Source: Parachlamydiales bacterium
GTDB lineage: Bacteria > Chlamydiota > Chlamydiia > Chlamydiales > SM23-39
Assembly (NCBI GenBank): GCA_050302075.1
Contig: JBNLAH010000001.1
Span: forward strand, 320,342 to 384,341
Direction: 5' to 3'
DNA length: 64,000 bases
Shown: one piece after another, positions 22,183 through 31,832 of the stretch
How positions within the stretch are numbered: the stretch's first letter is position 1
Layout of the letters: every line of letters starts with the position of its first letter
The notes under the pieces: generated by a model
Told to the model about the DNA's origin: nothing
What the model saw: only the letters and a program-made list of their open reading frames with translations
Database searches by the model: none
Made by a program: the position numbers and the translations under genes

Positions 22183-22235
22183 TTAAAGATGTGGGGCAAC
22201 CAGGACTTGAACCCGGGACCAACGGATTATGAGTC
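22183..22235. repeat. att direct repeat copy 2 (tRNA 3' half duplication)
   Basis: Identical to 31750-31802: TTAAAGATGTGGGGCAACCAGGACTTGAACCCGGGACCAACGGATTATGAGTC. Confidence 0.97.
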
Positions 22236-22352
22236 TTACCTATTTTGGCTACTAATGCCTATGATCCATAGTTAACAATCATATAATTAGCTTTTTAGGT
22301 TAAAAAAAATACTAATACTAATTGTTTGTTGCTGATCATTTTTACTAATTTC

Positions 22353-22372
22353 TGTGCCACTAGTGTGCCACT
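22353..22372. repeat. paired TGTGCCACT repeat, putative integrase arm-type site (left end)
   Basis: TGTGCC at 22353 and 22364, 11-bp period. Confidence 0.65.
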
Positions 22373-22552
22373 TTTTTTTTCTAAGTAACCGTAAATTTAG
22401 TGAAAGTTTCAGAATAAATTTAGATATTTTCCACTAAGTCATTTTTCCTAAAAAAATATTTTGACAGTTTCCAAGAAATGAGAATAATATTTTTATGTAA
22501 CAGACAGTCAGCAACTGTTTTAAGTGTAAAAAATATTATTTAGAGAATCGAG

Positions 22553-22747
22553 ATGAAGTTTTGTAGTTTAAACTATTTTTTAAAGAAAAGAGAAGATACA
22601 TGGCCAACCGAAAGAGCAATGCGTTGGATTATTTTTAATCGAGAATTTAATGGAGCAAAACGCTTTTTGAGAAAAGTTTCAGGAAGATGGTTTATTGATG
22701 AGGTGGAATTCGAAAATTGGATAAATGAGGACGGAAATGATAAGTAA
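22553..22747 (+). CDS. small putative DNA-binding/excisionase-like protein
   Basis: 64 aa; RKVSGRWFIDEVEFENWI resembles the wing of Xis/MerR-like HTH proteins; first gene of the replication operon. Confidence 0.55.
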   Translation: MKFCSLNYFLKKREDTWPTERAMRWIIFNREFNGAKRFLRKVSGRWFIDEVEFENWINEDGNDK

Positions 22748-22958
22748 TGAAAACAATAAAATTGAAAAGCTTTTGAATATTGCTAGCAGATTCTCAAATA
22801 GTTCAAATTCTGATTTACAAAGTTTAGGACGTTACATTGAAGATGAAATTCGAACTTTAGATGAATATGAAGAGTCTGATGAAAAAATACGTTTCTTGGA
22901 TGAAATTAGATATCGTGTAACTAAAAAATATAAAGAAATTACTGGAGATGGATTATGA
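22725..22958 (+). CDS. hypothetical protein
   Basis: 77 aa, overlapping both neighbours (translational coupling). Confidence 0.55.
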   Translation: MRTEMISNENNKIEKLLNIASRFSNSSNSDLQSLGRYIEDEIRTLDEYEESDEKIRFLDEIRYRVTKKYKEITGDGL

Positions 22959-29624: not shown

Positions 29625-30420
29625 AAACAGGCATGGTTTCTAAAAGAACTTTAGGAGTAATTTTTGTGTAGGTCTTAAGTTTTCTGCAAGCTCTATCAAA
29701 GTAAGAAATTAAGTGATTTCTTTTAATATAATCTCCATGACTTGTTTGAAAGACTAGTTCATTATCTTTATAACCTTTTCTAGTCTTAAGATTTATTAAA
29801 TTATCAATTATATGCCTTGGATACTTTATCAAATGCTTTTGAAAATTAATGCAGCTCATATTATTGCTAACTTGGTGCCATTTAAGATTTAGAACCTCAT
29901 CTAGTGTTGGAGCTCCAAAGTATAAAACTTTTGCTAATAGAGACTCTCTTTCTGGCAATAATAAACTAAATTCAACAAAAAGTTCATAATTTAACTTTCT
30001 AAAAGCGCACTGCTGCTTATCTGGATCGTAAGGTAGTTGAAATATTCCTAGTGTTTTTTCATGCAAAAAAGAAAAAAAACTGATGATATTAGCAACAATT
30101 TTTTCTTGAATAGAACGGTCTAATTTTGAATTAGTTCTTATTTCTTCTATGATGAGATGAAAACCACCTGATCTCAGTTCTCCTATAGTTTTTAGATATC
30201 CGAATTTATTAATAAAATTGATAAGAGTTTCGCTCATTAGATCAAAATCATTTGTTTTTGTTTTTGTTTCATTACTCCATAAAGTTAAAATTGGAAGTAT
30301 ATCTAGTTCATATAGTTTGTTTTCAAACTTGCCTCTAGATTCATAAAGATCTTGGGAAAGTTTATTAAAAAGTTTCATTTGCGATGGAGTATCTTTCATA
30401 TCATCCGAAAATTTTTTCAT
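29596..30420 (-). CDS. degenerate tyrosine-recombinase-like protein (chlamydial plasmid pGP7/pGP8-like)
   Basis: SFFSFLHEKTLG, RESLLAKVLYFGA..LDEVLNLKW, LVFQTSHG, KITPKVL; catalytic R, HxxR and Y absent. Confidence 0.65.
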   Translation of the reverse strand: MKKFSDDMKDTPSQMKLFNKLSQDLYESRGKFENKLYELDILPILTLWSNETKTKTNDFDLMSETLINFINKFGYLKTIGELRSGGFHLIIEEIRTNSKLDRSIQEKIVANIISFFSFLHEKTLGIFQLPYDPDKQQCAFRKLNYELFVEFSLLLPERESLLAKVLYFGAPTLDEVLNLKWHQVSNNMSCINFQKHLIKYPRHIIDNLINLKTRKGYKDNELVFQTSHGDYIKRNHLISYFDRACRKLKTYTKITPKVLLETMPVFINISQRVI

Positions 30421-31459
30421 TCATACTTCTTAAAACTGTTGAAGTGTGTGACTCACTTAAGTGAGCATATTTTTTAGACATTTGTATGCTCTTATGGCCT
30501 AAAATTTCTGCAATTTCAGTCAGTGAGGCTCCATTCATAGCTAAGTAACTAGCGCAGGAATGCCTTAAATCATGCCAACGGAAATCTTCAATATTTGCAT
30601 TTTTAATGGCGGTTTCCCATGCGGACCTAAGATCTAAAGGTTTTTTATTATTTTTACTAGGAAATACTAATGTTGAAGTTAAAGGTCTGTTTCTTTCATG
30701 TTTTTTTAACATTGTAAGAGCTAAGTGTGTTAATGGAACTGATCTAGTTTCTCCATTTTTTGTTTTATAAAGAACAATTCTACAATTTTTTAAATCTACA
30801 TTAGACCATGTTAAGTTCATTAGCTCGCTTTTTCTTATTCCTGTACTCAAAGCAATGACGACTGCTAGATAAAGATAAGAATTTTTGCTTTTTTTACACT
30901 CTATTAATAAAGCTTCTCTCTCTATATCGCTTAAATATCTTGATCTGCCTTTTGGTTCTTTAGGTTTTGTAATCTTTTGAACAGGGTTATCCTCAATCCA
31001 TTGATATTCTTTGACCGCTATACTTAATACATGAGATAGAGCAGCTAAGTATCTAACTACGGTTGATGGTGACTTTTTAGTACCTTTAGGTGTAATCTCT
31101 TGGCTCAGCTTATCTTTATATTCTGAAATTAAGGCAGGAGTTATATCAGCTAAAAGATATTTTCCTATTTTTTGTTTCCACCAGGCCAATTGATATCTTT
31201 TATCTTTAGCATTATTGGGATAATTAGGTAAAAAATCAGCAGAATATCTTTCAATTAGATCATTTAAAGTGTGTTTTTTTGCCTCTGAAGTTTTAAAATG
31301 ACGCCCTTCCCTTATGGCTGCTTCGGTCTGCTGCGCCCATCTTTTCGCGTCATGTCTTTTTTCAAAAGTAGCTGTTTGAGCTGGATATCCTTTTATTCTT
31401 ACCTGAACTCTGTAAGTTTTTTTTCCGTTTTTAGTAAGTCTCTTTTGTATATTGGCCAT
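30401..31459 (-). CDS. tyrosine integrase (element A), intact
   Basis: TGIRKSEL (R), TKNG (K), HDLRH, LGH, KKYAH (Y). Confidence 0.95.
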   Translation of the reverse strand: MANIQKRLTKNGKKTYRVQVRIKGYPAQTATFEKRHDAKRWAQQTEAAIREGRHFKTSEAKKHTLNDLIERYSADFLPNYPNNAKDKRYQLAWWKQKIGKYLLADITPALISEYKDKLSQEITPKGTKKSPSTVVRYLAALSHVLSIAVKEYQWIEDNPVQKITKPKEPKGRSRYLSDIEREALLIECKKSKNSYLYLAVVIALSTGIRKSELMNLTWSNVDLKNCRIVLYKTKNGETRSVPLTHLALTMLKKHERNRPLTSTLVFPSKNNKKPLDLRSAWETAIKNANIEDFRWHDLRHSCASYLAMNGASLTEIAEILGHKSIQMSKKYAHLSESHTSTVLRSMNEKIFG

Positions 31460-31588
31460 AAGTATTCACAAATAAATATAATATACAAAAATATGCGAAA
31501 ATTTGCAAACTCCGGATTTTAAATCAGATGGTTTTTTTATTTTTTGTCACTAGTAGTTAAGAGGTTATTACATGTAAAAAATGTTAAT

Positions 31589-31684
31589 GGCACATTTAAG
31601 GCACACAAAAGTTGCTTTTTTTGCAAATTTTATAGAATTTTTGCGTTAATGAAAGTTTCTGACTAAGTGTGCCGTTTGTGTGCC
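31589..31684. repeat. paired TGTGCC repeats, putative arm-type sites (right end)
   Basis: GGCACA at 31589 and 31600; TGTGCC at 31668 and 31679; both pairs have an 11-bp period. Confidence 0.65.
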
Positions 31685-31758
31685 AAATCACAAAAAGAAT
31701 GTAGGTGGAAGTTAGGAGTTCTGATTATAAATAACTGAAATTTAAAAGATTAAAGATG

Positions 31759-31832
31759 TGGGGCAACCAGGACTTGAACCCGGGACCAACGGATTATGAG
31801 TCCGCTGCTCTAACCAACTGAGCTATTGCCCC
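31759..31832 (-). tRNA. tRNA with CAT anticodon, probably tRNA-Ile2 (lysidine) rather than Met; integration target
   Basis: GGGGCAA/TTGCCCC acceptor stem, GCGGA-CTCATAA-TCCGT anticodon arm, GTTCAAG T-loop; 1-72 paired so not an initiator; CCA not encoded. Confidence 0.92.

Follow-up and report, generated by a model that had tools for sequence, protein, structure and literature searches.

A compact block of genes at a tRNA-Met gene of a Parachlamydiales bacterium (assembly GCA_050302075.1, contig JBNLAH010000001.1) raises the question of what kind of element carries its own integrase, primase-helicase and DNA polymerase but no capsid or conjugation genes. The block lies within a stretch of 64,000 nt that was analysed as a whole (hereafter, the window), in a genome of 1.84 Mb that is 96% complete and distributed over 89 contigs. 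The anatomy of the element is that of an iteron-type plasmid replicon, and we give a probability of roughly two in three to its being an integrative, plasmid-like replicon of an environmental chlamydia. An initial annotation, made from the sequence alone, had described a compact tRNA-integrated element with replication proteins and an origin of its own, a description that is confirmed by the anatomy reported here, with the origin as an origin-like repeat cluster.

Anatomy of the element and its replication module

The element is delimited by an exact direct repeat of 53 nt (22183-22235 = 31750-31802), as initially claimed, which consists of the 3' 45 nt of tRNA-Met plus 8 nt. The two copies are 9.5 kb apart, giving an element of ~9.6 kb, and the nine open reading frames (ORFs) between them are all open. 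These and the putative origin are arranged as follows.

22553-22747, plus strand: orf64, possible excisionase or helix-turn-helix (HTH) protein, without family match
22725-22958, plus strand: orf77, without family match in Pfam, PHROGs or NCBIfam
22955-24814, plus strand: primase-helicase of 619 aa, with TOPRIM, AAA_25 and a C-terminal HTH
24819-25010: iteron-like cluster, putative replication origin, with eight TGAGAC (seven direct, one inverted)
24883-26892, plus strand: family-A DNA polymerase (PolA) of 669 aa, with 3'-5' exonuclease and without 5' nuclease
26947-28680, minus strand: ankyrin-repeat protein of 577 aa
28792-29364, plus strand: orf190 ("C3"), conserved partner upstream of the HGGxSTG gene, without family match
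29361-29624, plus strand: HGGxSTG protein of 87 aa (NF041373)
29596-30420, minus strand: orf274, recombinase-fold protein, Pgp7/8-like, with a weak match to phrog_1 (7e-4)
30401-31459, minus strand: tyrosine integrase of 352 aa, adjoining the tRNA gene

The primase-helicase matches AAA_25 (1e-22) and phrog_239, "DNA primase/helicase" (1e-26), while its residues 193-314 match phrog_6088, "DNA primase", and the E and DxD residues of the TOPRIM domain are legible. Downstream of its stop codon (24814), and ahead of the part of PolA that aligns with homologs, lies the repeat cluster. TGAGAC occurs 36 times in the whole window, other 200-bp windows hold at most two, and a count of eight was reached in none of 2000 random placements. 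Alignments of the relatives' polymerases begin at residue 67-105 of the query and the relatives' N-termini are short; the true start of PolA is probably near 25021, and the whole TGAGAC cluster would therefore be intergenic.

Further, repeat clusters with direct and inverted copies lie in the gap between helicase and PolA in all seven elements examined. The motifs of the relatives listed below were picked from the gap itself, so that their counts are biased, while the position of the clusters is constant.

Window: TGAGAC, 8 in the gap, 36 in the 64-kb window
L100: TGAGAC, 14 in the gap, 22 in the sequence searched
L098: AATGACA, 6 in the gap, 11 in the sequence searched
L102: CGCGAC, 11 in the gap, 12 in the sequence searched
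L103: GCCAACA, 9 in the gap, 9 in the sequence searched
L097: CTTACAC, 5 in the gap, 6 in the sequence searched
L105: ATCGAAA, 6 in the gap, 9 in the sequence searched

A motif core is common only to the window and L100, the C-terminal halves of whose helicases are 55.6% identical. In the P4 alpha protein it is the C-terminal part of the helicase that reads the iterons, and a motif shared together with a related helicase fits repeats that would be read by the C-terminal DNA-binding part of this protein.

The polymerase is of the proofreading type, as initially proposed. It matches PF00476 (7e-77) and PF01612 (7e-21), with the exonuclease and polymerase motif residues in invariant columns. Among PDB entries, the highest scores were those of 8jrb (272 bits) and the Plasmodium falciparum apicoplast Prex (238), compared to 159 for Klenow. 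Being closest to the Aquificae and apicoplast enzymes, and combining exonuclease and polymerase without a 5' nuclease, the protein is placed with the "Hot Spring 1 / Aquificae-like" subfamily (cd08639, Aquificae/apicoplast-PREX type), the prokaryotic role of which is given as unknown in the available text of PMC10201439. It is not the NF011539 (PRK14975.1-3) equivalog, as its 441.6 bits fall below the cut-off of 640. The genome encodes a separate, host-type PolA on contig C5.

With regard to integration, the integrase matches PF00589 (6e-34) and phrog_1 (2e-73), and the full set of catalytic residues ascribed to it (R, HxxR, H and Y) is present in both sequence and alignment; it is 52-58% identical to the integrases of the relatives L260, L264, L269 and L278. 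In the neighbouring orf274, the catalytic R, HxxR and Y positions are replaced in the recombinase alignment. Its sole plasmid match is the integrase of Simkania pSn (3e-7), and it aligns at 23-30% identity with Pgp7/8-like proteins of relatives, among them the intact L102 (331 aa), which shares 46-48% identity with the integrases (Pgp7/8) of Chlamydia 7.5-kb plasmids. This recombinase family is reportedly restricted to chlamydiae (PMC7846284, in the part of the text available). Judging by these alignments, orf274 is probably a catalytically dead Pgp7/8-like pseudo-recombinase. The ORF first described as Xis-like, orf64, keeps that label as a possibility: no family matched, and the Atlas lead to the excisionase family PF07825 (Exc) scored 0.88, under the 0.9 mark. 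In L260 and L264, this position is taken by small ORFs to which it is 30-34% identical.

The 87-aa protein scored 53.8 bits against the HGGxSTG model (cut-off 29) and shows an invariant C-x10-C-x9-C-x2-H zinc motif (CCCH; C11, C22, C32 and H35). An HGGxSTG pair had been announced; one ORF in the window carries the motif, and its partner orf190 does not. An Atlas search with the HGGxSTG protein returned unnamed clusters only. Eight homologs of orf190 were found, including the window's own, and the two with a source name are Chlamydiae metagenome-assembled genomes (MAGs). Its AF2 model (pLDDT 78) is helical and had no fold match at E<=0.001 in PDB or BFVD.

The ankyrin gene matched Ank families at 1e-15 to 1e-31, which upholds its first assignment. 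The order PolA, C3, HGGxSTG is unbroken in the relatives L096, L098 and L104, and the ankyrin gene is probably cargo inserted between PolA and orf190. The encoded protein has an N-terminal non-ankyrin part of ~270 aa, with hydrophobic segments at residues 91-111 and 233-251, and is weakly similar to models of Legionella Ank effectors; a part in host interaction, as a secreted or membrane protein, is possible.

Beyond its distal end, the element is followed by the remains of another insertion, so that the integration site comprises the following features.

31758-31832, minus strand: tRNA-Met (CAT), the intact integration target, called by ARAGORN
31750-31802: att copy 1, tRNA-proximal, the 3' 45 nt of tRNA-Met and 8 nt downstream
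22183-22235: att copy 2, the exact 53-nt repeat, distal boundary of the element and proximal boundary of islet 2
18791-22182: islet 2, a decayed older insertion of 3.4 kb between att copies 2 and 3, which also holds orf121
21352-22038, minus strand: broken integrase of islet 2, with one TAG, 37-38% identical to the intact integrase
20077-20919: SAM methyltransferase of islet 2
18964-20049: YhcG/DUF1016 PDDEXK nuclease of islet 2
18738-18790: att copy 3, 52/53 identical

Att copy 3 and the broken integrase had both been overlooked. A 28-nt att core has three matches in the window, compared to 0 expected from 100 shuffles. Given the third att copy and the decayed islet, the tRNA-Met site is a tandem array, and the 9.5-kb element is its tRNA-proximal unit.

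A family of relatives and the signs of mobility

Homologs were surveyed in 400 genomes sampled across the phylum, the window's own included, with a threshold of E<=1e-60 for PolA and with 14 control genomes for HGGxSTG. PolA homologs, 33-41% identical, were found in 11 of the 400 genomes, spread over seven GTDB families. HGGxSTG was present in 106 (91 over the cut-off), often in several copies, compared to one of the 14 controls. That single match, in Haloferax volcanii, shows that archaea have the domain as well. Of the 30 best HGGxSTG matches, each viewed within a 3-kb locus, 22 have an orf190 homolog directly upstream. Relatives that are close by integrase and by orf190-HGGxSTG carry a helicase and a primase without PolA. 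The polymerase is thus optional, and the proposal that the element is built on PolA does not stand.

In larger stretches the layout runs from the tRNA through the integrase, a Pgp7/8-like or unknown gene and a small Xis-like ORF to helicase and primase, an optional PolA, orf190, HGGxSTG and cargo. Those delimited by repeats range from 6.7 to 19 kb and use different tRNA genes.

G137: tRNA-Ser, repeat of 48 nt (90%), 9.1 kb, decayed
G181: tRNA-Phe, exact repeat of 44 nt, 18.8 kb
G231: tRNA-Phe, three att copies, the same element as in G181, in an array
G195: tRNA-Leu, exact repeat of 57 nt, 9.6 kb
G100: tRNA-Phe, repeat of 42 nt (98%), 6.7 kb
G077: tRNA-Met, repeat of 46 nt (98%), 17 kb
G040: tRNA-Asn, exact repeat of 46 nt, in an array
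Metagenome L271: tRNA-Phe, exact repeat of 44 nt, 7.6 kb

The helicase slot is filled variously by TOPRIM/AAA_25, DUF3987 with an NrS-1-like domain, DUF5906/D5-like, DnaB, DUF927 or ResIII/DEAD proteins, and the primase is fused to the helicase, standalone or fused to PolA. The cargo comprises copper/RND efflux, multicopper oxidase, GNAT, APH-type kinases and an ABC transporter, and several conserved proteins of 360-480 aa have no assigned family. When 38 of the relatives' proteins were scanned, no capsid, portal, terminase, relaxase or type IV secretion system (T4SS) family appeared. Where their ends could be delimited, the relatives are thus likewise small and without detected structural or transfer genes; occurrence only as a fragment of larger prophages was the outcome that the initial annotation had named as fatal to its proposal. 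The family is one of phylum-wide, tRNA-integrated islands of 6.7-19 kb with a fixed backbone. This comprises a tRNA integrase of the P4 type, often joined by a second recombinase that is Pgp7/8-like, a small Xis-like ORF, a slot for helicase/primase, iterons clustered immediately downstream of the helicase gene, an optional PolA and the orf190-HGGxSTG pair, to which cargo is added.

Two relatives (L096, 5002-7971; L101, 7918-10878) encode single primase-PolA fusions of 986-989 aa. In L096, the Pfam order is T7-type Zn-ribbon, Toprim, exonuclease and polymerase, with a helicase gene upstream, and the L101 fusion aligns with the primase half of L096. By its domain order, this fusion amounts to an apicoplast PREX that is only partly fused. 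ORFs of 323-384 aa in L260, L265, L266 and L269, considered as short PolAs, match no more than the primase half of these fusions; they were not counted as PolA, and CcPol-like short PolAs are not proposed for the family.

Outside the phylum, the best plasmid matches of PolA were to cyanobacterial plasmids of 12-27 kb, and homologous loci also occur in Nostoc, Clostridiales, Aquificaceae and Pyrinomonadaceae. The best contigs from IMG/VR reached only 34% identity and the polymerases of cultured phages were more distant. In a quick tree (SH-aLRT support only, from a quick search, with no PREX included), seven chlamydial PolAs formed one clade and two another, the window's stood alone on a long branch, and all were nested in a larger clade of largely unnamed sequences from metagenomes.

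Mobility within the family is seen in G181 and G231, which belong to different GTDB families (f23 and f10) and have in common an element of 18.9 kb with 97.2% DNA identity, while their flanks do not align. The element of G181 (L106 and L098) and G231 (L107, L099 and L108) encodes a P-type ATPase, a multicopper oxidase and a CusCBA-like efflux system, and the G231 copy is part of an array with three att copies, the edges of which carry an 800-bp repeat.

As regards the element of the window itself, a comparison was made with the two nearest genomes (genus g5). Their orthologous tRNA-Met site keeps the synteny of MFS, DUF1207 and the next gene and is without the element. The suggestion to look for an empty site in relatives was thus borne out as to the absence of the element; the site itself is occupied, as both genomes hold a different att-bounded islet of 2-2.6 kb there (L225, 4768-6837; L226, 4472-7155). 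This islet has a degenerate att copy (92% and 83%) and encodes a 524-aa ORF. The tRNA-Met gene with MFS/DUF1207 synteny is found in the relatives G419, G004, G169 and G383.

A circularly assembled relative was found as a metagenome contig (L278; 12,340 nt), the exact 123-nt terminal overlap of which is the signature of a circle of ~12.2 kb. It encodes an integrase 52% identical to that of the window, an SF2 helicase, a STAND-like ATPase, an unknown protein of 870 aa and two homologs of orf190. Upstream of its integrase gene, 34 nt resembling tRNA-Thr (1243-1276) are an attP candidate. Such a terminal overlap was not found in L096, L097, L100, L101, L265 or L266.

Two further observations concern the surroundings of the array. 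A fourth att-like fragment of the tRNA-Met 3' end (89% over 85 nt) lies on contig C2 of the window's own genome (G000, 231693-231777; L194, 1501-1585). It has ~35 nt in common with the left flank of att copy 3 and adjoins a YhcG nuclease fragment, no tRNA was called there, and it suggests an older rearranged insertion. Among the contigs of the sequencing run that contains the element, no joint indicative of excision or of a circle was found; the one joint on "opposite strands" stems from this paralogous remnant. Just beyond the array, the window is very AT-rich (15296-18737; GC 0.23-0.26 around 16000-17500) and holds two ORFs of ~380 aa (15296-16435, minus strand; 16912-18060, plus strand) without Pfam match, neither of which was found at the same site in G004 and G419.

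Known systems and rival explanations

Among plasmids, the closest likeness is with the cyanobacterial pAL20118a (12.2 kb) and pGM04 (17 kb), both small and typed as non-mobilizable, in which a DnaB-like helicase stands directly upstream of a PolA of the same subfamily, labelled "bifunctional 3'-5' exonuclease/DNA polymerase"; pAL20118a also encodes a tyrosine recombinase, like the element. These plasmids differ in that they are free rather than tRNA-integrated, their PolA is only 34-36% identical, the helicase is DnaB-like instead of TOPRIM/AAA_25 and no orf190-HGGxSTG pair is annotated. No iterons were found at the helicase-PolA junction of pAL20118a. Chlamydial plasmids, with their Pgp1-8 core, resemble the family in that its members carry Pgp7/8-type recombinases, of which orf274 would be a degenerate relative. 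In contrast, the element is tRNA-integrated by a different, P4-type integrase, its primase-helicase has no match in chlamydial plasmids and thus none to a Pgp1-type helicase, and the ParA/Pgp5 family did not appear in domain scans of the nine ORFs. The order primase-helicase, then exonuclease-polymerase, is that of an unfused apicoplast PREX, here as separate genes on a bacterial mobile element. The element is neither a pipolin nor a casposon: the polymerase belongs to family A and not to the protein-primed family B, integration relies on a tyrosine integrase and the repeats are direct and derived from a tRNA, with neither Cas1 nor terminal inverted repeats. The element is accordingly not self-synthesizing in the sense used for those two groups. 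Neither does the premise hold that integrative islands of this kind carry only family-B polymerases, as the SCC-type islands of Bacillota have A-family polymerases adjoining helicases, according to the portion of PMC10061031 available, where these islands are also said often to form tandem arrays at one site.

The parallel with SCC islands leads to a first alternative, in which the element is as described and PolA is a primase-like initiator or a gap-filler, as in the CcPol-MP pair. The A-family polymerases beside helicases on the Bacillota islands act as primases, as far as the accessible text of PMC7581432 and PMC10061031 goes, and most members of the chlamydial family are without PolA, which is hence dispensable to the backbone. 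However, many SCC polymerases are truncated and primase-like, whereas in this one both the exonuclease and the polymerase are complete and their motifs conserved; it also groups with the apicoplast enzyme, which is replicative, and occurs alongside a separate TOPRIM primase domain. Further, the OB-fold MP partner of the SCC islands has no counterpart, as no ORF lies between PolA and helicase and orf190 is predicted to be helical, and the SCC islands use large serine recombinases at rlmH/ssrA instead of a tyrosine integrase at tRNA-Met. We consider this role for PolA improbable.

A phage satellite of the P4 or phage-inducible chromosomal island (PICI) type, induced and packaged by an unknown helper and with HGGxSTG as a small-terminase-like recognition factor, would share much of the layout: a tRNA-targeting tyrosine integrase with att duplication, an Xis-like ORF, a primase-helicase with an adjacent (putative) origin, a size of 9.5 kb where such satellites have ~10 kb, and no structural genes. 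One family member also moved recently between host families. The only packaging-labelled matches among the nine ORFs are weak ones to PHROG "terminase small subunit" families, in the zinc-motif region of HGGxSTG (phrog_9231, 1e-3; phrog_10899, 8e-3) and in the C-terminal HTH region of the primase-helicase (phrog_309, 5.7e-5; phrog_4102, 9e-4). What is missing are the genes by which satellites hijack helper capsids (capsid-size control, TerS/Ppi-type packaging and a helper-responsive repressor). No capsid-size, packaging-redirection or helper-sensing family was detected in the nine ORFs, nor any capsid-remodelling, packaging or helper-sensing gene in the window or in the 38 relatives' proteins, no helper was identified, and none of the other element families is present on the 80 IMG/VR contigs that matched PolA best. 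The genome itself had no HK97 capsid, Terminase_6N or Phage_F match, although the Phage_F control also matched nowhere. A full DNA polymerase and members of 17-19 kb with metal-resistance cargo fit satellites poorly. The element fits no known satellite family, and we regard this explanation as rather unlikely; in function, it would resemble an integrative plasmid or a P4-type replicon without the packaging genes. The claim that capsid and conjugation genes are absent is upheld by the Pfam, PHROGs and NCBIfam scans of the nine ORFs, three of which match nothing. No relaxase, coupling protein or T4SS family was detected in them, an unrecognised oriT being possible, and the genome had no match to the T4SS coupling protein PF02534.

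The integrative-replicon reading has to be set against several observations. One sequencing run contains the element and is probably its source, with no RNA run among those listed. In its Logan contigs no excised form was seen, and the depth of the element (24.1) equals that of its flanks (24.0-24.6; islet 2, 28.2 vs. ~24 for the neighbouring segments), so that neither the attP junction nor the raised coverage for which the initial annotation had hoped was found. These contigs also break at each att copy, leaving the order of the three att-bounded pieces unconfirmed. The sole circular contig, L278, lacks HGGxSTG and PolA, and its orf190 homologs are only 37-42% identical. The HTH_7 match of the primase-helicase (residues 594-613) is weak (E 0.007), the motif counts in relatives carry the bias mentioned above, and the PolAs of chlamydial elements are not monophyletic, with the window's on its long branch. 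That the cluster is an origin, that the helicase binds it and that PolA is replicative is what we infer from gene order and domains.

Part of this evidence would also be expected of a fixed remnant, that is, a decayed prophage, integrative and conjugative element (ICE) or plasmid that is immobile, with replication genes idle or co-opted by the host. The chromosomal depth, the lack of junction contigs, the decay of islet 2, G137 and G040 (broken integrase, broken PolA) and the lost catalytic residues of orf274 are in line with it. On the other hand, the att repeats are identical at 53 of 53 positions, the nine ORFs are open and the catalytic residues of integrase and polymerase are intact; the intactness of the core genes and the exact repeats speak for an element that was recently active. 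The compact gene set recurs within exact repeats at different tRNAs, copies with 97% identity reside in different families, and the element is missing from the same site in the nearest genomes, all of which makes a remnant decidedly unlikely. A partial assembly artefact, in which the 9.57-kb segment is a free circle or lies elsewhere and was joined by the assembler at collapsed att copies, would account for Logan contigs that end in each att, and a contig of 9,573 nt that starts and ends in att sequence is compatible with a circle and an insertion alike. Yet element and flank depth are equal and the layout with the integrase beside the tRNA matches relatives on closed or long contigs, so that we consider such an artefact very improbable; the element and its att site would be real either way.

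Proposed life cycle and meaning for the Chlamydiota

Under the preferred reading of an integrative, plasmid-like replicon, the integrase, perhaps together with orf64, would excise the element as a circle. The C-terminal HTH of the primase-helicase would bind the TGAGAC iterons, and the protein would melt the origin and prime synthesis, after which the proofreading PolA could copy the circle without the host polymerase, in a two-protein replisome like those of T7 and PREX. The dead recombinase orf274 and the orf190-HGGxSTG pair may serve as DNA-binding accessory factors and the ankyrin gene as host-interaction cargo, while movement from cell to cell would take place without an element-encoded capsid or pilus. 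In a bolder version, which we hold to be possible but unlikely, the backbone would define a phylum-wide class of autonomous integrative replicons of obligate intracellular bacteria that spread from one chlamydial family to another without capsid or pilus, for example by uptake of replicating circles between bacteria co-resident in a host cell, with orf190-HGGxSTG as new machinery for this step and the PolA-bearing members as a bacterial reservoir of the unfused PREX-type replisome.

The literature found on chlamydial mobile DNA deals with plasmids (PMC7846284) and a conjugative island (PMC548262), both in the parts of the texts available. Neither chlamydial elements of this kind nor HGGxSTG proteins were described in the literature searched.

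Apart from their plasmids and a few conjugative islands, chlamydiae are considered to have little mobile DNA. A compact family recognisable by one hallmark, present in about a quarter of the sampled chlamydial genomes and recently moved between families, with effector-like, metal-resistance and drug-modification cargo, would bear on this picture. It would also give the PolA subfamily a concrete genomic role, the replication of integrative plasmid-like elements, and in it the gene arrangement of PREX is seen both unfused and partly fused. We know of no genetic tools for environmental chlamydiae, for which the combination of integrase, att site and self-contained origin may provide part of an integrative or shuttle vector. 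The wider family is of more interest than the single element.

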